This document shows, in pieces, positions 12,386-57,118 of a stretch of DNA of 64,000 bases. Within the stretch, counting starts at the first letter, position 1. Each line of letters starts with the position of its first letter. Under the pieces are notes generated by a model. That model did no database searches. It was given only the letters and a program-made list of their open reading frames with translations, and was not told where the DNA came from. The position numbers were made by a program, and so were the translations under genes. The stretch spans positions 152,460,001 through 152,524,000 of the forward strand of contig NC_086097.1 in the NCBI RefSeq assembly GCF_963921235.1, written 5' to 3'. This DNA is from Mobula hypostoma (Eukaryota).

Positions 12386-13357
12386 GACATAATCAGGCAT
12401 AAATCAGATTAACCACTGCATGGTCAATAACAGTAGGTCCTCAAAGTCATATAGTCAAGGAACCATAGATTTGTATGGCACAGGAAATGGTCCTTCAGCT
12501 ATCCACGGCGACCATCTACACTAGGGATAGTAGTTGATGGTATGAGGAGGTTGACTACATGATTGCATGATGGCATAAGGAGGAAACACAAAATCTTTCA
12601 GTATGTGGCTAAGATAAAGGCAGTAAATTAGGAAGAGATTCATGTAGAGTATAAACATCAAGACAGACTATTTGGCTAAGTAGTTTTATGGTCTTTATTA
12701 TATATTGTGTACAATTAGCTGGCTTCATTCTCTATCAATAGAATAATTTGGTAAGATCTGCTGTTTTTAATAATAGGAAAATATTCATGCTCAATTATAA
12801 AAAGTGCTACTCATTGACAATGCAAATCTACTGTGAGACCAAGCAAACAAAAAATAATCCAGATGGCATTAACATTCATGGAATAACATTAGAATAAGAC
12901 CTTGGAGCAGTGCCTGTTGAAATTTCTTCATGACCTTTCCAACAACTCCCTGTTGCATTCTGACTTCTGCTAACTCTCCATCCATGTTGACTCCTATTTT
13001 TTTTAAAAAGCTGGAACAGTTGCACTTGTATCATTAAAGCAGTGATCCAGGGTATACGTCCAGAGTGAAATAATGCACTCTGCAAAGGGTGGAGGTGGGA
13101 TGGTGGTGTGTCGATGGGAGCCTTCTGGTCGAATTGTAAATGTCTTGCGGCCCAGTGGAATTATTTATTCTTGAAGTTTTCCAATACAAACAATAAATTT
13201 TGCATTTAAATGTTAGCAATCCTTTCCCATTCAGCTCAATCTCTCTAAGTACTCAGTTATTTTATGGTACAGTGGCTCAGAAATTCTAGTATGCATCTTG
13301 ATAGCTATGTGGGCTATGTAATATAATTTTTAAAGAAAACTATGAAAATCTATGATA

Positions 13358-13787
13358 GCAACACACATCAAAGTTGCTGGTGAACGCAGCAGGCCAGGCA
13401 GCATCTCTAGGAAGAGGTACAGTCGACGTTTCAGGCCGAGACCCTTCGTCAGGACTAACTGAAGGAAGAGTTAGTGAGAGATTTGAAAGTGGGAGGGGGA
13501 GGGGGAGATCCAAAATGATAGGAGAAGACAGGAGGGGGAGGGATGGAGCCAAGAGCTGGACAGGTGATTGGCAAAGGGGATATGAGAGGATCATGGGACA
13601 GGAGGCCCAGGGAGAAGGAAAAGGGGGGGGGACCCAGAGGATGGGCAAGGGGTATAGTCAGAGAGACAGAGGGAGAAAAAGGAGAGTGAGAGAAAGAAAG
13701 TGTGTATAAAAATAAATAACGGATGGGGTACGAGGGGGAGGTGGGGCATTAGCGGAAGTTAGCAGAATTCCTCTTGTTTGCGTTTTT
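13358..13787 (-). mobile_element. Non-coding PLE 3'-end insertion (inverted 3' UTR plus short forward tail)
   Basis: About 13360-13762 is the reverse complement of about 832-1240; 13762-13782 GCAGAATTCCTCTTGTTTGCG is a forward tail piece; 13-bp TSD AAAATCTATGATA at 13345-13357 and 13788-13800. Confidence 0.9.
13420..13457 (-). ncRNA. Minimal type-I hammerhead ribozyme, intact core
   Basis: Reverse complement is identical to 1146-1183. Confidence 0.85.
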
Positions 13788-13842
13788 AAAATCTATGATA
13801 TTCTTTCTGGGTCTTTGGTATGCAGGTCCAAGAAAAGGTGCT

Positions 13843-15173: not shown

Positions 15174-16810
15174 TAACCATATAACCATATAACAATTACA
15201 GCACGGAAACAGGCCATCTCGGCCCTTCTAGTACGTGCCGAACTCTTACCCTATCCTATTCCCATCGACCTGCACTCAGCCCATAACCTTCCATTCCTTT
15301 CCTGTCCAGATATCTATCCAATTTAACTTTAAACGACAACATCGAACCTGCCTCAACCACTTCTGCTGGAAGCTCATTCCACACAGCTACCACTCTCTGA
15401 GTAAAGAAGTTCCCTCTCATGTTACCCCTAAACTTTTGTCCTCTAATTCTCAACCCATGCCCTCTTGTTTGAATCTTCCCCACTCTCAATGGAAAAAGCC
15501 GATTAACGTCAACTCTATCAATCCCCCTCATAATTTTGAACACCTCTACCAAGTCTCCCCTCAACCTTCTACACTCCAAAGAATAAAGACCTAACTTGTT
15601 CAACCTTTCTCTGTAACTTAGGAGATGAAACCCAGGCAACATTTTAGTAAACCTCCTCTGTACTCTCTCAATTTTATTGACATCCTTCCTATAATTTGGT
15701 GACCAGAACTGAGCACAATACTCCAGATTTGGCTTTACCAATGCCTTATACAAATTCAACATTACATCCCAACTCCTATACTCTATGCTCTGATTAATAA
15801 AGGTCAGCAAACCAAAAACTTTCTTCACCACCCTATCCACATGAGATTCCATCTTCAGGGAACTATGTACCATTATTCCTAGATCCCTCTGTTCTAAAGC
15901 ATTCTTTAATGCCCTACCATTTACCATGTATGTCCTATTTTGATTAGTTCTACCAAAATGTAGCACCTCACATTTTTCGGCATTAAACTCCATCTGCTAT
16001 CTTTCAGTGCACTCTTCTATCTGTCCTAAATCTCTCTGCAAGCTTTGAAAACCTACCTCATAATCCACAACACCACCTATCTTAGTATCATCTGCATACT
16101 TACTATTCCAATTTACCACCCCATCATCTAGATCATTAATATATATTACAAACAACATTGGACCCAGTACAGATCCTTGAGGCACACCACTGCACACCGT
16201 CTTCTAATCTGACGCGCAGTTATCCACCACTGCTCTCCGGCGTCTCCCATCTAGCCACTGCTGAATCCATTTTACTACTTCCATATTAGTGCCTAACGAT
16301 TGAACCTTCCTAACTAACCTTCCGTGTGGAACCTTGTTAGAGGCCTTACTGAAGTCCATATAGACAACATCCACTGTTTTACCCTCGTCAACTTTCTTAG
16401 TAACCTCATCAAAAAATTCGATAAGATTTGTCAAACATGACCTTCCACACACAAATCCATGTTGACTGTTCCTAATCAGACCTTGTCTATCCAGAAAATT
16501 ATATATACCATCTCTAAGGATACTTTCCATCAATTTACCCACCACTGACGTCAAACTCACAGGCCGATAATTGCCAGGTTTACTCTTAGAACCCTTTTTA
16601 AACAAAGGAACCACATGAGCAATACGCCAATCCTCCGGCACCATTCCCGTTTCTAATGACATTTGAAATATTTCTGTCAGAGCCCCTGTTATTTCTACAC
16701 TAACTTCCCTCAAAGTCCTAGGGAATATCTTGTCCGGACCTGGAGACTTATCCACTTTTATATTCCTTAAAAGTGTCAGTACTTCCTCTTCTTTAATTGT
16801 CATACTTTCC
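15174..16810 (-). mobile_element. Relatively young 5'-truncated CR1 (HER1-like) LINE; RT to 3' end with few disruptions
   Basis: ORFs 16204-16812 (KSPGPD, GNYRPVSLTS, QHGF, VYMDFSKA), 15997-16197 ([16 protein letters not shown]) and 15256-15993; (TATGGTTA)n tail; ATTA at both junctions. Confidence 0.95.
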
Positions 16811-16918
16811 ATTAAGGGTCTTGATGCTGTAACATTGACTACATCTTTGCTTTCACGGATGCTGATTGACCTGTTGATTGCTCCAGTAGCTTTGCTCCAT
16901 GTTCCAGCATCTGCAGTT
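16811..16918 (+). mobile_element. Old PLE 3' end relic, right part
   Basis: AAGGGTCTTG...AACATTGACT...GATGCTG...TTCCAGCATCTGCAG is colinear with 32500-32608. Confidence 0.65.
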
Positions 16919-21080: not shown

Positions 21081-23074
21081 GATAATTTTGGGATAATGTC
21101 ATGACAGTATGCATTCTGGAGCTGAGAAAACCATGCCATAAAACTAGGTTTTCATTGGATCACATTGACTTAACTCAACTGGAATGTTGAATAGGGAGGA
21201 TCTTCAGATTATGAAACTAAGAGGAATATTTATTGGTAATTTTGGTTAATGAACTTTAGAAAAAAAAACATCAGTCAGCTTTTTCAGATTCTCAGTAATC
21301 ATTGTAACAAAATATGAGGAATGGTAAATGTAATGCATAGCTCTATTTCTTTTAGAGCAATGACCCCTCCCACTTAGCACTACGTATTGATCTGATGTCT
21401 GCACATGCACTATGTTGTCTCTCTCTCGCTACAATGTGAATACTCAAGTTAAAGCCATCTCCCACATCTGTGCTTTTATTTAATTGATATGTAATTGTGC
21501 ACAGAGTTGGCGACGAGCCTGAAATGTCAGAAAATACCACAAACTGCATGGACAGTTACTGCACAATTATGGAATGAAACAGTGGAAGTTAAACAGCACG
21601 AGAAGGCCATCACAGACGCTGACAAACGTGTGATTTCAGTGCATAGTTACAGTGAAAGATGCGCTGAACATAAATAACATGGCGATGGCTTCAGTCAGGA
21701 AAGTTGACGAATTTGACGGCACTAATGAAGGTTGGGAATCATATATTGGGAGGTTTGTAATGTGAACAATGTGGATGAGCAAAAGAAAGCCCCTACACTT
21801 TTTAGCTTAATGGGTGCAAAAACACCGTCTCTTAAGCAACCTAGCAACCCTTGAAAAACCAGCAAGCAAGATGTTTGACAAAATTGTTACAATTTTACAA
21901 AATAACTTGGGCCCTAAGCCATTGGCAATGGCTGAGAGATTTAGTTTACAAAAGGAACCAGTCAAAAGATGAAAGCCTTCCTGAATACATTGCAGAACTG
22001 TGACTTTAGAGATGGACTTTCTGATGCATTAAGGGATTGTATGTGTCATTCATAGTCAAAGCACCCAAAAGAGGCTATTGTTAGAAAGAGACCTAATGTT
22101 CAATCGAGCCCTGACCATTGCAATATCGTTAGAGACTGCAGCAAAAGATGCAGCAGAACTACAGAAAAGGAGGTTAGAATGTGAAATGCACAAAATGAAC
22201 TTGAATGGTGCAAAAAGCCAAAAATGTTATTGATGTGGCAGATTCTCCCATGATGCAAACGACTGTTGGTTCAAAGAAAATGTCTGCAGAAAGTGTCACA
22301 AACAAGGTCACATACAGAGAACGCGCAAGGCAGTCAAAAAGCACAACCAAATGAAAAATTCCAAACACAAAACTAGGCAAATACATAAAATGACTAACTG
22401 TGGAACAGAATCAGACAATATAGAGTCTGACAAAGGTGAACTGTCATGCCTAGAACTGCATAGCATTACTGCAGCAGATCACTAAATCCTTTGGATTACA
22501 ATAGATGTGTCTGGTGTAAAACTGAAATTAGAGCTGGATACAGGGTCAGCTTTGTCCATAATTCCAGAGGCTGACTACAACAGACTGTTTTTTTGGATAA
22601 CATTAGAGAAGAACTCAGTGATGCTAAAGACTTACATAGGTGAAAAAAATCTCCTAAAGGCAAACTGAAAGTAAATGTGACGTATGGAGGCCAAATGCAA
22701 CAGTTAGAGCTTTATGTATTAAAAAGTGGTGGGCCAGCACTTTTCAGCTGTGCATGGTTGAGAAAAATCCAACTAGACTGCCACTCAGTCAAAGCTCTCA
22801 GTATGATGTCAACAGGCAACTGCTGCCCAAATGGCAGCACTAACCAGAGACTGACACAGCTGCTTAATGCTAATCAGAAGGTGTTTTGAGAAGGCAGTAG
22901 ATAAACAGATTGAAAACTTGGCCAAAGCTTTTCAGGGTGCCAAAAAGTTCAAAATGTACCCACACAGCACTGTTACACATAGGAGTGGCCTTTGTCACTA
23001 TGGCAAAGAGTACATGTTGATTTTGCTGGGCCATTCACGTACTCAATGCTTCTGATTGCTGTGGATGCTCATTT

Positions 23075-23527
23075 GTGTCCCCTCTGAGGACTATCTTTGC
23101 TAGGAAAGGATTGCCAGAACAAATTGTGAGTGGCAATGAACCACAATGCACATCAGAAGAATACCAACTACTCATGAATGAAGATGGCACCAGACATTTC
23201 AAATCAGCTCCTCACCACCTAGCTACGAATGGATTAGCTGATGGGTTTATCCAAACCTTCAAGGAGTCCCTTAAAGTGATGGACAAAGAGGACATTTTTC
23301 TACAGCACAAGGTGGACAACTTCATTTTTGTGTATCGGAACTCTGTTCATGCAATGACAAATCAAACACCTGCAATGCTGTTCATGAGCAGGAACCTGAG
23401 ATCTTGCATCGACCTCCTGAAACCAGACCTCTGGAGGGAAGTAAAGAATAAACATTTCAGTCAGCTGCCAAGTGAAGCAGCAAGGAGCTTCAAGATTGGA
23501 CAGGAAGTCCTAGTGTGTGATTACTGA
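23075..23527 (+). pseudogene. Gypsy integrase core/C-terminal remnant
   Basis: LRTIFARKGLPEQIVSGNEPQ...HHLATNGLADGFIQTFK...FVYRNSVHAMTNQTPAMLF. Confidence 0.85.
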
Positions 23528-23666
23528 GAAGATAAGTGGACACTTGGTCAGATAGCTACAAGAACTGGACCACTGATGCACACAGTGGATGTTGGAGATC
23601 AGTCATGGAGACATCATTTGAACCAGATACCTGATGCTCAACTGAAGACCACACCTGCGTCGACTG

Positions 23667-30000: not shown

Positions 30001-31182
30001 GCCATGAGAAATTAAAAAAGTGCTAAATCCTTCATCCAATGATCATCCATGTATGACATAATATATGTGTAATATCCAGACATAACTGTTTTCTGGAGCT
30101 GGTATAGACCAGAGGAAGTCAGAAGGGCTATTTCTCAGTGGCAGTGGCACATTGCTACAAACCCCAGCAAACTAGCACAATTGTGATCGTCATCATGAAC
30201 ATTGGCTGTTCAATTCCACAATGAATTATCAAGACATTTGTTCCACACTAACACAGTAGAATTAAAACTACACTCACTATTGCAGACCTACTAGACTATT
30301 GACTGAAACGATAAGCTGCCATGACCAAGTAGACGGCTCTGGAGTGACAGTGCTTTTAAGCGTTAGGAACAGGACATGAATCCCTGTCAAAAAGTGAGCT
30401 CAGGAATATAAAAGGGGTGTTAGAAGGGAAAGAAACGAAGCTGGAAGTGGATAGTAAAAATATTAGCAAAATAGTGGCAGAAACAAAGGCAGGCGGTAAA
30501 GGTGTCAGAGTACGGAATAGACAAATGTAAAGGCAACATATCTGAATGCACAATGCATCCAAAACAAAGTGGATGAATCCATGATAAAAAGTATTCATTT
30601 ATAGATATAATTTCATTAGAATTATGAAAATTTGGCTACAGGATCTGAATATTTCATGCAGTAGATCTTCAAGATATTCAAAATTTATGGGTACATTTAC
30701 AAGGGAAAGGTATTAGGGTAGTGCTGACAAAACCCAATGACATCAATGCAATAATCAGAAATAAAAGTTGGATTGGAAGATTGTATACAGCTAAGGATCA
30801 GCCTGCGCATGTTTGTTTTCAAGTCTCTGAAAAGTAGTTATGATACAAAGTATAGTAAGAATAAGCAAAACTTGGTAGTAGACTAATAATTGGGATCTTT
30901 AATCTGCATATGCAGTGGGATAATCAAATTAGTTCTGACACTAAAGGATGAGTTTTTAGATTTATGTATGGGATAGATGGATTTTGAGATCAGTTTGTTG
31001 AGGAATTAAATCAGAAATAGGCTACTCTATATAAGTACTGTGCAATGAGAAAAGGTTAATTAATGATCTTATAAAGGAGCTTTAGGAAAGAGTGACCACA
31101 ATATGAGAGAATTTTGCACTAAATATGAAAGTGATGTTGTGTAATCTGAAGACAGGATTTTCATTTTAAAAAAAGGTAATAA

Positions 31183-31274
31183 AGAAATGCCTCAGCCCGA
31201 AACGTCGACTGTTTCTCGATTTCCATCGAGGCTGCCTGGTCTACTGAGTTCCTCCAGTATTTTATGTGTGTTGC
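31183..31274 (+). mobile_element. Short PLE 3'-end fragment with the 3' half of the hammerhead
   Basis: CTCAGCCCGAAACGTCGACTG...GCTGCCTGG...TGTGTGTTGC; imperfect flanking repeat AAAAGGTAATAA / AAAAGTAATAA. Confidence 0.75.
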
Positions 31275-32029
31275 AAAAGTAATAAGGGGAAGGTTGACTG
31301 TTGTAGACCGAAAAATTACATTAAATTGTATGACTGTCGCCATGTAATGGCTAGTATTTAATGAAATAAATAATACACATTAAAGCTCAAAGACATGACA
31401 GTAAAATGGTCCAACATAGGCTACAGGACAACATAGAGTCAGCATCAAATCTAGGGAAAATAACTTAAATGCAAATAAACGGCAAACATGAAAAGTGAGT
31501 TCATTTTGGAATTCAGCAATGGACGACAAAGATATTGATAAAAGAATGGAAAATGGAATATACATATACACTAGCAAAAAGAAAACCACAAGATATTCTG
31601 TAGGTCATTAAAAAATGAAAATTATGAACGAAGCCAAATGTGTGTCCCTTAAGACAGAGGCAGGAAAATTATAAGTGAGAATTGGGGTATGCTGTGTCTG
31701 CCTTCATGGAAGAAGGTACAATAGTACAATAGATAGCTCCCAGAAAGAGATCCAATGGACAATACATTTAAAGAACTTAAAATAAATTAAAATTATAAAT
31801 TTTAATTAAAATTAATTAAATTAATTTTAATTAAATAAATTAAAATATATCCGTACTAATTTAGAAATCAAAATGAAGTTAATCAGCCAGAAAAATGTTA
31901 AAGCTATAACTGTATAATCTATATCCTAGATTTATGAAAGTGACAGTTTGATAGTCACAGTCTAAAATTCTATACATTTGGAATTATCACTTCTGATTGG
32001 GAATTGCAAATAAGATTCCACTATTGAAT

Positions 32030-32660
32030 TGTGTCGATAGTCAGAGGCTTTTTCCCAGGGCTGAAATGGCTAGCATAAGAGGGCATAGTTTTAAGGTGCT
32101 TGGAAGTAGGTACAGAGGAGATGTTAGGGGTAAATTTTTTTCACAGAGAGTGATGAGTGTGTGGAATGGGCTGCTGGCAGTGGTGCTGGAGTCGGAAATG
32201 ATAGGGTCTTTTAAGAGACTCCTGGATGGATACATGGAGCTTAGAAAAATAGACGGCTATGGGTAAGCCTAGGTAGTTCTAAGGTAAAGGATCTATTCGG
32301 CACAGCTTTGTGGGCCGAAGGGCCTGTATTGTGCTACACACACAAAATGCTGGTGGAATGCAGCAGACCAGGCAGCACCTATAGGAAGAAATACAGTTGA
32401 CGTTTTGGGCCGAGACTTTTCATTAGGACTAACTGAAAGAAGAGATAGTAAGACCACTTTCAAATCTCTTACTATCTCTTCTTTCAGTTAGTCCTGACAA
32501 AGGGTCTCGGCCCAAAACATCGACTGTACTTCTTCCTATAGATGCTGCCTGGCCTGCTGCGTTCCACCAGCACTTTGTGTGTGTTGCTTGAATTTCCAGC
32601 ATCTGCAGATGTCCTCGTGTTTGCTGTATTGTGCTGTAGGTTTTCTATGTTTCCATGTTC
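32030..32660 (+). mobile_element. CR1 3' fragment, interrupted by the PLE fold-back element
   Basis: DSQRLFPRAEMASIRGHSFKVLGSRYRGDVRGKFFSQRV...; tail TTTCTATGTTTCCATGTTCC. Confidence 0.9.
32336..32623. mobile_element. 288-bp PLE-derived fold-back element with two decayed hammerheads
   Basis: Inverted arms 32336-32453 and 32467-32584, 13-nt spacer, tail to 32623; 12-bp TSD CTGTATTGTGCT at 32324-32335 and 32624-32635. Confidence 0.92.
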
Positions 32661-33611
32661 CTATATTAGAAAGGAAAGAGAGAGAAAATGCGTACCTGAA
32701 TTTGGTAGTTGAAAAGTTGCTGGAAATAATAATAAAAACATGATCATAAAATATTTATGAAGTGATAATATGATTGTCAATTTTATATTAATAAAAAGGA
32801 AACAATACTTAACCAATTGACTGGGATTCTTTGAGGACATGTCTGGTAGCATAGCTGAGAAAGAACCAGTAGGTATGATGTATTCAGTTTTTGATAAGAT
32901 CCCATGCAACAAGATAATGAATAAGATTAATGAGCATGGAATTTATGGCAATATATGAACACTGTTTGAGAATTCAAAAACAGATAGGAAACAAAGTACA
33001 GGAATAATTGGGTCTTTCTCTGGTTGGCTGGCTGCGACTAATCAAGTACCACAGGGATCAGTTCTTGAACCAATTCACAATCTGATAGAACTCAGAATTA
33101 TACAGCAGAGAAAGAGGGCCTTCAACCCAATTCATCCATTTGACCAAGGTGTCTATCTGAGCTTAACCTATTTGCCTGCATTAGGTCCATATTTCTCTAT
33201 GCTTTTTCTATTCATGACTTTTCCAAATTTCCTTTAGAGATTGTACTTCTGTGAGAATTACCCATTGAAACACAGGTAATGTTCAGGCGTCAGGGAACAG
33301 GTTTGGTGGAGGAGAATAGGTATTGAGATGACTATGTATCTGGGTATGAGTTCATCAAAGAAATGAGAAAGTGCTGTAATTATGGGGCAGAGCTGGTTAA
33401 AAATAATTCTACATTTGAAAATGAACATAACCCTTAAATAGACATTTAGAGCAGGCAAGGAACAAAGAACATAAGACGTAGGGTACATAGCCTGTGCTGT
33501 GTCAACCAACAGTCTATAAACCCACTTCATGATCAATCTAACTCTTCCCTTCTACACAGTCCATAACCCTCCATTTTTAAGTTTCAAAGTAGCATTAAAA
33601 TTTATGGTTCA

Positions 33612-34196: not shown

Positions 34197-35704
34197 CTCA
34201 TCAGGAAAACCTTAGTCTGTTGTGTGACAACAAAATAAATAAGATCAATCCAGAGTAGATCTGCAAGTGTGACACTTACTGAATGGATTGTTTGATCATT
34301 TGCATAATGTGTGCATGTGTGCAGACTAATAAATCAGATGTACTATTTTGAGTTCTGTGGTTCAAACTGTTAAGCCTAGCACCGGGTTAGATCAAAGTAA
34401 AGTGTTGTCGAGGAAACAGACAAGGACTCAGGAATTTAACCAAAGCATGGGGGTGTTTATTTAACATCTCCTTCCCACAGCTACAGTACCTGCAGTCAGA
34501 ACAGCCTATGTGACAGTAATGGCATGAACGTACTGTTAACATACTCAGTACACTACACCTGCACTACAATATGCAGGTCCCGAAACAAACTAAAAGCATA
34601 GACATCACATTCAGTTAAATCAAACTTCCTGAAAGACAAATATATATATATATATATATTCTATAACTGAGTTTGTAAAAAGATGAACATACTGGAAATA
34701 CTCAACAGGATTGGCAGCATCTGTGGAGAGAGAAACACTGTTAAGATTCTGATGGAAGGTGACTGCTATCAAATATTAAAATTTTATGCTACTTATCCTG
34801 GTGATTATTTCCAGCATTTCCATGGTTTTGCTCTACTGACATCAGTTGTGGTACAGCACTGCAGTCAACTTAATATTTTTGAAAGGAATTGAGTCCTTTT
34901 CCCTCTACCACCTTTGCAGACGATGAGTTCTGGATCCTCCTCTCACCTTGCCACACCATCTGATGGAAAACATGGCTTTGTTGTTGGCTCCAAAATGAGA
35001 AATAGGCTCCTCCTGTTCATCATATATAAGTCTCTCATAATTTTATGCACAACTTATTTCAGCCTCATTAGCATTTCTTACCACCTAGTGTTTTCCCTCC
35101 AAACCCTAATTTTCCATGCGATCAAGCACTAATCTGGTTTTTCCCCAGTAGCCACCTGCCACCCACCTATACTAGTGGTATTTTAGGTAGCTAATTAACC
35201 TACTAACATGCCTCTGCATGTGGGAAGAAACCTAAGCAGCAGAGGAAATTACAAGAAGAACATGAAAATAACAGCTGCACACAGACATTTCCCAAGGTCA
35301 GGAAGGAACCAGGATTTCTGTAATTGTAAGGCAGCAGTGTTAACTGCTGCACCATTGTACCTGCTAGTTACTCTAGCAATGAGAAGGGTTGAAGAAATAA
35401 CTTAAGAGTTGAAGGGGTTGAATTTCTGACAAAGAGTCACAAACTCATGACTTGTGTCATGTGACTACGACTAACTCAAAATGTTAACTGTTTTTCTATT
35501 TCCACACGCAGCCCAACTTGCTGGGTTTCTTTACTTTGATTTCATATTTCCAGCAGCTGCAGATTTAAAAAAAAAATCAATTACTGTTGGAAAAAATCAA
35601 TAGTATTTTTTAAATTTAATTCTCAATAAGGTCAAAGAGAACAAATTCAAAGACAAATAGCAAACAGCGCAAGAAAACTTTGCATATCTGACCATCTCTT
35701 AGAT

Positions 35705-41817: not shown

Positions 41818-42965
41818 GTATGTTTCCTTTGCATCAGATATGCTTATTGTTTACATCAGTCCCCTTTCACAGGACAGGATTTATATACAGAAGGCCTCAG
41901 CACTGAGGATGGAGCTGCCTTCACCAAACAAACTTTGACTTGGGAAACCCACACAAAGTAGATGTGATATTTTTCCCGTAGGTCATCTGTGAATGTGCGT
42001 AGTTAGCTGATGACTGTAGATTATGGGATGTTAGTTTCATAGACAAATACTTTTTTTAAAAATTAACTTTCTGGGCCAATGCCAAACTGCCGTGCAAACC
42101 AAATTTTTATGGGTCTTGGTTTAGTCCCAACTTCCCCATGCAGAAATGTAACATTTGTTGTGCCTGTACAACTACAAATCAATTAAAATAAAAGCCCGCA
42201 TGCAGGAAATGGGTTAACTGGTGTATTCACATTGCAGCGAGAGAGAGAGAGAGTGAAAGCAATGTGCATGCATAGACAACAGATCTATACCCATTGGTAA
42301 GTTATCAGTTCATACGTATTCCTAAGCAGAGTCATTGCTCCAGACAAAATAGATCTATACATTACAGTTTCCCCCCCTTTAGATGAATGTAACATAAAAC
42401 TGTATATGTAACAAAAGATTTAAATTCACTTTAATAACCCATATTCAAGTATACATACTTTTACAATAACAGTCTATAACTAACTTCACTATCCTAATGA
42501 TTCAGTCTTTTAGGTGGTACTTTGTTTCTTTCAGGTTTGTGCCTTTGGACCTGTGGAGTGGCATCAGGTTTGGCAGGTGTCTTATCAAAAACAACTTTCT
42601 CTTTTGCAGGTATCACATTGCTGTTAATGACATGATCATCACGAGAGTTAAGTCCAGTGGCTGTAATGCGTCCATCTTGTTGGATGCACTTAACTCAGGT
42701 GTGTTCTTCAGTACAGCACCCAGTATCTGGTCCAAATGATGTCTCCATGTCTGATCTCCAACATCCACTATGAACATCAGTGGTCCAATTCTCGTAGTTA
42801 TCCTACCAGGTATCTACTTGTCTTCTCAGTAATCATGCTCCAGGACTTCCTGTCCAACCTCGAAGCTCCTTGCAGATTCACTTGGAAAATGGCTGAACTG
42901 TCTATTCTGTACTTCCCTCCGGAGGTCTGGTTTCAGGAGGTCTATGCAAGATCTCAGTTTCCTTC

Positions 42966-43749
42966 TCATGAACAACATTGAATTGTTTGATTTGTCATTC
43001 CATGAACAGAGTTCCGATTAATGAAAAGGAACTTGTCCGCCCCGTGCTGGAGGTGCTCTTCATCATTCTTGCCGGTCACAATGATATCATCAAGAAAATA
43101 TTCCGCTCGTGGGATATCTTGGTGTACATGGTCCATTGTCCTTTGCCAAACTGCTAAAGCTGATGCGACACCGAAGATGAAATGATTACAGTGGAACAGT
43201 CTCTTGTGAGTGTTGATTGTGAGGAACTTACTGCTTGACTCTTCAATCTCATTTGCAGATAGACTTGTGACAATCAGTCTTTGAAAATCTCTCCCCACCT
43301 GCCAAAGATGGAAATACATCTTCTATTCATGGCAGGGGATACTGCACAGCATGCAGCACAGTGTTGATGCTTACTTTGAAGTCTCTGCATATGTGAACAG
43401 CTCCGGCATTTCCTTTCTTAAATACCAGGATAATGTGCATGGCCCAATCACTCCATTCAACCTTGGAAAGAATATCAGATGCCTCCAAGCTCTTCAGTAC
43501 AACATCCACTTTAAAAAGTGGTGTGTAAGGCACTGGATGCGCATCATGGAAATTTAGTGTTGCCGCTTCATCCAGTTCAATTCTGACCTTCACGCCTTTG
43601 AGTTTACCTATCCCCTTCTCAAACATCTTTTCGTTAGCATTAAGCAATTGTGCTGGTCTCTGGTTAATGCTACCAGTTGGGTTGCAGTTGCCTACTGATG
43701 ACACATTGTGAGCTTTGATTGCTTGCTGGTCTAGTTGGATTTTTCTCAA
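42966..43749 (-). pseudogene. Gypsy RT remnants fused to an integrase C-terminal remnant
   Basis: VEWSDWA...VHICRDFKVSIN...QYPLP; LTINTHKRLF...FGVASA...YFLDDIIVTGKNDEEHLQ joined directly to DKFLFINRNSVHGMTNQT. Confidence 0.85.
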
Positions 43750-44277
43750 CCATTCACACCCAAAATGTGCTGGCCCTGCACTTCCCAGTACATAAAACTC
43801 TAATTGTTATATTTGGCCTCCATACATCACATTTACTTTCAGTTTGCCTTTGGAAGACACTTTTTCACCTGTGTAGGTATTTAGCATCACTGAGGTCTTC
43901 TCTAATGGTATCTTAGAAAACATTCTGCAGTAGTCAGCCTCCGAAATTATGGAAAAAGTTGATGCTATCCAGCTCCGCTTTCAGTTTTACACCAGACAGA
44001 TCTATTGTGATCCAAATGATTTTGTGATCTGCTTCAGTAATACTATGTAGTGCTAGGCATGACAGCTCACTTTCGTCAGACTTTGTATTGTCTGATTCTG
44101 TTTCATATTTAGTTACTTTGCATTTGTTTAATTTTTTTGTTAGAAAGTTTTCACTCTATGTGGTTTTACTCTTTGATTGTGCTTTTGTTTGATTTGCACC
44201 CTCTCTATGTGACTTTGTCCATGATGCTTCCTGCAATCTTTTTCTTTGAACCAACAGTCATTGCATCCTGGAAGGAT

Positions 44278-44880
44278 TTACCACATTGATAACACTTTTG
44301 GTTTTTTTGCACTATTTAGAGACATTATGTGGATTTCACATTCCAAACTCTTTTTCTGTAGTTCTGCTGAATCCTTTGCTACAATCTCTAAAGATATTGC
44401 AATGGTCAATGCCCATTCTAAGTTTAGGTCTCTATCTGACAATAGCCTTTTTTTGGTGCTTTGACTATGCATGCCACATACCAGCCTATCCCTTAATGCA
44501 TCCAAAAGTCCATCTCTAAAGTCACAGCACTGGGAAAGTTTGCGTAGTTCTGCAATGTATTCAGAAATACATTCATCCTTTGACCGGTTCCTTTTGTTAA
44601 ATCTAAATATCTCAGCTACTACCAGCAGTTTGAAGCTCAAATTATATTGTAAAATTGTAACAATTGCATCAAATATCTTGCTTGCTGGCTTTTTAGGAGT
44701 TACTAAGTTGTGCAAAAGCCTGTATGTTTTAGCACACATTAAGTTAAGAAATATGGATACTTTCTTTTCCTTATGCACATCATTCTCATTGCAATACAGT
44801 TTAAACTTCTCAATATACGGTTCCCAGTCCTTATTAACACTATCAAATTCAGCAATTTTCCCAACTAAGGCCATCAACAT
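44278..44880 (-). pseudogene. Gypsy gag remnant
   Basis: MALVGKIAEFDSVNKDWEPYIEKF...RFNKRNRSKDECISEYIAELRKLSQCCDF...LRDRLVCG. Confidence 0.85.
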
Positions 44881-45829
44881 GTTATTTTCATTTTAACTTT
44901 CCTAAATGTGCATCTTTCATTGTATACTGTGCACTATTACTCATTCATTCCTTTGTTTCCGGACCGTGCCTGTCTTCCGTCTTCTCTGTATAAACAGTAT
45001 CTTAAATAGAATTTAAACAGAATCTTTCCTCTTGCTGTCTCCTGTAACTGTCGGTGCCATTGCTGACATTCACTGGCTTTCAGATTCGTACTCATCGCCA
45101 ATTTATTATGTCCGTACAACTACACATCAATTAAAATAAAAGTACGCACATGGGAGATGATTTTAACTGGTGTATTCACATTGCAGGAAGAGAGGGAAAG
45201 CACAGATCAGAGCACAGAGCATGTGTAGACAACAGATCATTGCATATAGCTAAGTTATCAGTCTATGAGTAGTGCTAAGAAGAGTCATTGCTCTAAAAGA
45301 AGTAGATCCATACATTACAACATTTATTTTAATTTTTCCATGCTAAATCCCTTTGAGTCAAATTGCCATATTAGGGAAAATGATGGTGTGGAATGCATTC
45401 TTTTTAGTAACTTGGTTGTACTCCTGAAATTTTGAATGCAAAAATTCATTTTGCGAGCAGGTTTCTGATATGAGAAAAGCTTACATTCAGTTGATTGGAA
45501 ACAGGTTTTGCACAGACATGAATGGAATTGTTGTTTTCAGCCCCATCTTCAAAAGTGGTTCTGAAGGGAACTCATTGGGGTTTATATGGAGAAAGTTTCA
45601 AAGAGTGGAGTGAAAAATTGTTTCAAACAACAAGATTTTAAGGATGTGGAAGTAATTAAAACTAATATCTTAATCAACTGCCAAAAATTATGGCAAATTT
45701 TGTTAGGACAATAAGGAAGGAGACAAAAAAATCAGAAGGGGCAGCAAATATTAAAGTGCACACATGATTTTAAAATCTGCAATCAGACAAATAAAGTAAA
45801 TGATGGAGAACTTAGAAACATTAATCTAC

Positions 45830-53392: not shown

Positions 53393-54254
53393 TGTTACGT
53401 ACCCCGTAACTGGGTTGCCAAACCAGCAGAAATGGATCACTCAGTTGGAGTCTGGAGTACTAGAACTAAGAAAGTTTTATTAAAGAAACAAGCAACACAG
53501 TAATCGAAAGGATAATAAATGCAACAATTCAACAATGATAACCACACATGTGCACAGAATTAAGATAACAGCATCAATCAAGCTCTATCGTTGTCTAGGG
53601 GTAAATGACCAATTTCAAAATGACTCAAAGTTCAGTCCAGTTAGTAGTTCAGTTCGCAGTAATCGTTGCCATGGCGATGGACAAGGTGGGGGAAGAGAGA
53701 CAGAGAGAACAGGAACAACTCATCATTCAGCACAGCTTCACTCACAGACCAGCGAGATTGCTCACGAGCAACTTTTGGGCGGGTCCTTGGTGATGTCACC
53801 TGAGGTCACCGACTGTGACCCCTCCTCCAGATGCGGTCGATCCTCTGCAGTGAACCCGGCACCCAGGCAAGGGCGGACACACACCGGGTTCCCGCTGATC
53901 GTACCTTTCCACCCTTGTCGTTGTCTGATACTTCTCACCCACTCGTGAGAGGCGCACCGCTTCCAGGGTCTCGTTACCTCGGGTGGCGTGTGTGTCCTGT
54001 CTTAGCGAACCTGTCCCTTTTTATCCCCCTGCTGGGGTATCGCCTGTCCATCACTTCAAACAGTTCAGGGTTCAAAGGGGGGAGCCGCTCCAGACAGCTC
54101 TCTCTCCCACATCCCTTCATTACACATCTCCAGACGCTGCTCCATTGTTCCTTATCTCTCCTTCCCCTGAGGGCAGGTGGCAGACCAACTGCTGATGCCA
54201 CTGATGCTAGCCCAGGCCAGCAAACATCTTAATTTTATGTGTATTCTCGTAACA
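53393..54254 (-). mobile_element. 862-bp solo LTR, probably young
   Basis: Perfect terminal inverted TGTTACG...CGTAACA; perfect 4-bp TSD CTAT at 53389-53392 and 54255-54258; minus-strand TATA-like GATAAAAA at about 54018-54025 and AATAAA at about 53476-53481; CpG-rich. Confidence 0.9.
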
Positions 54255-57019: not shown

Positions 57020-57118
57020 ACTGTTGGAGGAACTGCTGGAGGAACTCAATAGGTCAAGCAGCATCTGTGGAGGCAAAGGGGTGGTTGATGTTTCCGGGCA
57101 AGATCCTGTTTCAGGACC
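57020..57118 (-). mobile_element. Decayed PLE 3'-end/hammerhead relic
   Basis: Minus strand GGTC-CTGAAAC-AGGATCTTGCCCG-GAAACATC-AACC...AGATGCTGCTTGACCTATTGAGTTCCTCCAGCA. Confidence 0.6.

Follow-up and report, generated by a model that had tools for sequence, protein, structure and literature searches.

Near the middle of the 64,000-nucleotide stretch of Mobula hypostoma DNA analyzed here (hereafter the window), a 288-bp sequence that folds back on itself interrupts the 3' end of a LINE, and it raises the question of what kind of element this is and whether it arose in a single integration event or belongs to a mobile hairpin family. It is clear from our results that the insert consists of two 5'-truncated PLE ends joined head-to-head within one 12-bp TSD. 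We are confident that it is a dead one-off PLE insertion, and it is likely a unit without progeny. The locus is an ordinary piece of PLE scrap, with a layout that is already known in kind. The features of the insert and its immediate surroundings are as follows.

32030..32663, plus strand: host, the 3' end of a high-copy LINE, with its 3' UTR interrupted by the insert
32324..32335, plus strand: left copy of the TSD, found once in paralogous LINE ends
32336..32453, minus strand: inverted, 5'-truncated PLE pLTR end, 118 nt, at the family's tail-less end
32454..32584, plus strand: direct, 5'-truncated pLTR end, including the former "spacer" 32454-32466
32585..32623, plus strand: PLE tail of 39 nt, restricted to one arm
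32624..32635, plus strand: right copy of the TSD, its first C readable as tail too

In a self-comparison of the window, 106 of the 118 positions of the left arm (32336-32453) pair with their counterparts in the right arm (32467-32584) across a gap of 13 nt, and the single-copy 39-nt tail follows the right arm only, which bears out the fold-back structure described in the first-pass annotation; a separate repeat search returned an inverted repeat of 121 nt at 89%. The plus strand of the 288-nt unit is predicted to fold at -198.5 kcal/mol (z -24, with 0 of 200 shuffles equally stable), as any long inverted repeat would. The 13 nt do lie between the paired arms, but they are not the foreign spacer DNA they had been taken for, since in alignment they match the pLTR of the 13.4-kb copy at every position; contigs of three runs likewise extend left past 32454 into ordinary pLTR (252, 158, and 68 loose ends). 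Because these 13 nt continue as pLTR, the insert resolves into a 118-nt inverted end and a 170-nt direct end. The left arm and the tail-less copies at 1.2, 13.4, and 31.3 kb all stop at the same place to within 3 nt, and the right arm ends where the family's tail ends, with the loose ends of contigs diverging just past 32623. The direct arm is 91% identical to the copy at 13357-13492, and the focal tail matches the inverted tail at 13762-13780 at 16 of 19 positions, the sole other such match among 127,962 positions. All 288 nt of the insert are PLE sequence, and the unit codes for nothing, as had been proposed: both arms are truncated inside the pLTR, and no ORF is left.

Both copies of the TSD, CTGTATTGTGCT, match exactly (32324-32335 and 32624-32635), and the chance of finding such a duplication is about 2e-5 when 5 nt of slack are allowed per end. 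In paralogous LINE ends, position 32335 runs directly into 32636 in 497, 461, 243, and 769 loose ends, a skip of ~300 nt that is seen in the contigs of all four runs. Since these paralogous ends hold the 12-mer only once, the duplication is real and the paralogous site is empty, and the perfect 12-bp TSD of the first-pass annotation stands. Its placement of the insert in the 3' UTR of a CR1 element holds as to the 3' end of a LINE, the C-terminus of which matches ORF 15256-15996 at 46% over 78 aa, that ORF following an RVT_1 ORF in the window; the LINE is presumably of the CR1 type. Contig depth is very high from ~32000 to 32663, summed contig depth not being the same as copy number. Separately, an A+T-only self-complementary stretch at 31763-31850 consists of TTAATTAAAA-type units with several overlapping inverted repeats.

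With this anatomy in place, the possibility can be weighed that the palindrome stems from independent insertions of two PLEs at a single spot, from misassembly, or from a DNA-transposon MITE, to which we can give scarcely any credence. A MITE is bounded on either side by the terminal inverted repeats of a DNA transposon, and the insert does have terminal-looking inverted repeats; however, all 288 nt are PLE, each end is a known end of the family, and the 39-nt tail offsets the repeats, which are hence not terminal. The pLTR sequence, the TSD, and this offset agree with the earlier reading of the insert as a retro-insertion of PLE ends and not a MITE. Separate insertions or an artefact might be suspected on the grounds that 10% of positions differ between the arms, the left arm having the larger share of the changes, and that no piece spans the junction among the 32 contig pieces listed of ~381,000 in four runs, but a single TSD encloses both arms, and the differences between the arms resemble independent decay, their asymmetry being non-significant.

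All 12 differences between the arms are transitions, and 7 of 12 CpG dinucleotides, counted over both arms together, are mutated. The asymmetry was considered as a sign of two templates and rejected: the split of 10:2 (p 0.04), with more changes in the left arm, becomes 9:3 (p 0.15) once the T at 32573 found in the family contigs is applied, and the non-CpG asymmetry is 6/9 (p 0.11). The seven non-CpG differences are similar in extent to the divergence of the flank from organisms B and D (9/309 and 17/290), and contig pieces on the unique right flank occur in organisms B, C, and D, with no empty orthologous site observed among the pieces listed. Judged from these substitutions, the insertion is probably old, with the dating being rough.

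Each arm also holds a decayed minimal hammerhead, and our placement of these relics agrees to within 1 nt with that of the first-pass annotation.

32395..32430, minus strand: decayed minimal hammerhead with CTAATGA replacing CTGANGA, AAAA replacing GAAA, and stem II broken, located by arm symmetry
32490..32525, plus strand: decayed minimal hammerhead with CTGACAA, AAAA, and CATC

Residues are numbered by the usual hammerhead scheme (G8, G12, and so on). The right arm carries the changes G8A, G12A, and G16.2A, and the left arm carries G5A and G12A together with the broken stem II, the left-arm relic alone folding with merely -1.7 kcal/mol. The description of the insert as ribozyme-bearing does not survive these changes in both catalytic cores, as G12 and G8 are reported as the catalytic residues of the hammerhead (PMC6155905), and neither arm retains the combination of CUGANGA, GAAA, and stem II that marks an active minimal hammerhead. 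The copies at 1.1 and 13.4 kb retain an intact minimal hammerhead, and a G is found at both 32499 and 32514 in most of organism A's depth in the family contigs. The insert is likely without a working ribozyme, to judge from its motifs, and the suggestion that the ribozyme would be sequestered by its antisense arm falls away, since both motifs are decayed and leave nothing functional to sequester. Rfam gave 0 matches at gathering score for the insert and also missed the hammerhead of the intact copy, so it fails to detect this minimal motif. Matches of 32370-32550 to microRNA precursors were dismissed, being far under gathering (best 61 of 180 bits) and of the sort that mirrors any long hairpin. 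Taken alone, CTGANGA occurs at chance level in the window (44 vs 42 expected).

The 3' part of the parent PLE occupies positions 1-1244, its 5' end lying beyond the window. It comprises a stop-free stretch of ~280 codons, containing GIY-YIG, CX4CX2C, and CCHH, and behind it a complete pLTR whose hammerhead is intact and whose end is tail-less; the arms of the insert are 88% identical over 132 nt to the pLTR behind this GIY-YIG ORF (1-843). The best of 33 longer relatives is a zebra shark protein (63%), which points to a cartilaginous fish as the likely host; many relatives carry RT, and relatives of the parent ORF carry PF00078 and PF01541. Conserved in the alignment of the parent are C149, C154, and C157, as well as C192, C195, H214, and H230/H236. 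A CX2-5CxxC linker combined with CCHH is given as the signature of Neptune/Nematis in PMC8557442, and the parent has this linker and CCHH, which would assign it to the Neptune/Nematis type by its motifs, with its RT core outside the window. The insertion has the attributes of EN+ PLE insertions: a pLTR origin, an inverted truncated copy, a one-sided tail, and a short variable TSD. Further members of the family in the window are listed below.

13345-13800, minus strand: region of a second two-armed PLE insertion
13357-13770: family piece inside that region
31180-31278: other family piece
57031-57117: other family piece

The third of these pieces, traced at 31169-31290, is an older, short, tail-less PLE end, ~77% identical, with an imperfect A-rich duplication of ~11 bp around it. 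The stretch at 57031-57117 is a degraded PLE end and apparently an older related copy, as are, apparently, the short tail-like matches at 35546-35564 and 16902-16916; no second arm was seen on inspection at the matches at 35546 and 16902. Other repeats occur in the window as well. An apparent solo LTR of 862 bp at 53393-54254 has TGTTACG...CGTAACA termini and a 4-bp TSD, CTAT, and is locally CpG-rich. The related stretches at 21672-23660 and 42693-44892, which are 76-85% identical and in opposite orientation, contain what by eye are remnants of ORFs resembling gag, RT, and integrase and are presumably decayed LTR retrotransposons.

How the two ends came to be joined is best approached from the second two-armed insertion, which spans 13358-13787 on the minus strand (430 bp), has a 13-bp TSD, TATCATAGATTTT, and has a junction unlike the focal one. 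Its 26-nt inverted arm is tail, its 404-nt direct arm is tail-less with an intact minimal hammerhead, and its tail polarity is opposite to that of the focal insert. Because this inverted arm is absent from its own direct arm, fold-back copying is hard to invoke for it. For the focal insert, fold-back would mean that a single cDNA folded back, primed itself, and was copied, with the endonuclease then resolving the hairpin 39 nt before its end. Junction palindromes in PLEs have been read in print as self-priming (Arkhipova 2013, PMC3846280), and fold-back predicts the subfamily letters and the G12A change that are common to both arms. The arms are also identical over the 27 nt nearest the loop, and the loop contains a TTT-C-AAA near-palindrome. 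We nevertheless regard it as unlikely. The shared G12A requires no dead template, since 7 of the 12 CpGs have decayed; the near-palindrome is one of 7 sites (stem of at least 3, loop 0-1) in the 414 nt of the pLTR and is unremarkable; and the left arm halts at the family's usual tail-less end. Compared with the family sequence, the join of the inverted and direct ends also shows no microhomology (0 nt). The one-off origin put forward in the first-pass annotation is most likely right as far as a one-off integration product is concerned, and the fold-back priming it offered is weakened by this lack of microhomology and by the arm at 13.4 kb.

One-sided tails are found among distant relatives as well. 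In a set of 80 distantly related loci (36-51% protein identity), a minimal-hammerhead-like motif lies behind the ORF at 31, and an inverted match lies upstream at 18 under our own filter. Nine of these 18 were inspected, and the nine omitted were at contig ends, very long, or apparently unrelated repeats. A shared tail was present on one arm only at six of the nine inspected loci, three of them with TSDs of 12-14 bp.

Tail on the direct arm: L044
Tail on the inverted arm: L033, L058, L059, L060, L079

At L080, the tail is on neither arm, L002 and L076 were not scorable, and the junctions differ among all of the inspected loci. The loci L044:841-2038, L058:2381-4007, and L059:1665-4039 have a one-arm tail of ~50 nt and TSDs of 13, 12, and 14 bp, respectively, and the side of the tail switches between these three.

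From the 13.4-kb insertion, the one-sided tails in relatives, and published in vitro data from the anole, we infer that two nicks each primed a cDNA, and we lean toward this explanation over fold-back on the basis of the two insertions in the window and the nine distant loci. The PLE endonuclease would have nicked both strands ~12 bp apart in the LINE 3' UTR. One 3'-OH would then have primed reverse transcription at the tail-less initiation site, giving 118 nt, and the other at a site ~39 nt further downstream, giving 170 nt. The cDNA ends would have been linked by a template jump or by end-joining, with no microhomology involved, and then filled in, and the inserted copy would afterwards have decayed neutrally. 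The protein of PAc (Poseidon, Anolis carolinensis; Frangieh et al. 2024, PMC11167929) nicks and extends both target strands in vitro and has two internal initiation sites that bound the tail, much as proposed for the focal insert; hammerhead mutants of this element still insert, and hammerhead cleavage is accordingly dispensable for insertion. Unlike PAc, the focal parent has the CX4CX2C linker of the Neptune/Nematis type, which Poseidon lacks, and the focal target is not especially AT-rich; inverted products are not reported as reconstituted in that study (PMC11167929). Neither two-nick nor twin priming in PLEs was found among the search-result entries of a literature search. The account as a whole, in which PLE ends came to lie head-to-head in a single abortive integration with two nicks each priming a short cDNA, seems to us probable.

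This layout is consistent with what has been described for other PLEs. For EN+ PLEs, the described layout includes inverted 5'-truncated copies, a one-sided tail of 30-40 bp, and a TSD (PMC8557442; PMC3846280), and the unit in Fig. 2 of Craig et al. 2021 (PMC8557442) has, like the focal insert, an optional tail at one end, a short TSD, and a pLTR hammerhead. In contrast to the canonical EN+ PLE unit as depicted there, both focal arms are truncated inside the pLTR, and there is no ORF. In the Adineta vaga element Pen2a_Av (Arkhipova et al. 2013, PMC3846280), an inverted truncated pLTR likewise adjoins a direct copy, but the focal junction lacks a palindromic overlap; the focal TSD of 12 bp compares with 8-10 bp in the rotifer, and the focal tail of 39 nt with the 30-40 bp of the described layout. 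Like those of metazoan PLEs (Cervera and De la Pena 2014, PMC4209133), the focal hammerheads have no helix III and carry an additional base ahead of stem II. The same work describes pairs of minimal hammerheads in Schistosoma mansoni that lie on opposite strands at a distance of 100-700 bp, whereas the focal motifs are core-mutated and ~60 nt apart.

The remaining proposal is that the 288-bp hairpin belongs to a non-autonomous family, transcribed and re-inserted in trans by a PLE protein. The unit does have both PLE end types and a clean TSD, and non-autonomous PLE derivatives and mobilization in trans have been published (PMC8557442; PMC3846280; bioRxiv 10.64898/2026.07.22.740005). We find a family highly unlikely, however, as the junction occurs once in the 64 kb, the other PLE pieces and insertions differ from it, contigs reaching 32454 run on into normal pLTR, and both ribozymes are decayed; the family suggested in the first-pass annotation is unsupported. 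Exact pLTR motif scans returned 0 matches in viral, genome, and metagenome contigs, and no MITE-like PLE hairpin family was found among the search-result entries of the literature search. The focal unit is non-coding, PLE-derived, and hammerhead-bearing, as are the non-LTR retrozymes (bioRxiv 10.64898/2026.07.22.740005), but retrozymes, as defined in the text of that preprint, are direct tandem repeats with complete, intact type I hammerheads, whereas the focal unit is an inverted pair with dead motifs. It shows no sign of amplification, and it is neither a retrozyme nor a MITE. The associated idea of long dsRNA is sound structurally, given the predicted stability of the hairpin, and for Penelope inverted repeats it has already been published, with Drosophila siRNAs matching inverted regions of rearranged Penelope copies (PMC3681739).

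Were the hairpin family real, a PLE would have given rise to a family of MITE-like units seeding dsRNA against the parent element genome-wide; a junction-identical family, if one existed, would represent a new type of non-autonomous retroelement and might serve as a source of silencing RNA. As it stands, the focal insert is a tidy fossil of PLE integration, a process for which the mechanism is still debated, and as a single locus it matters little. Together with the 13.4-kb insertion and the distant loci, it is consistent with a mode of integration in which each of the two nicks uses a different RT initiation site.
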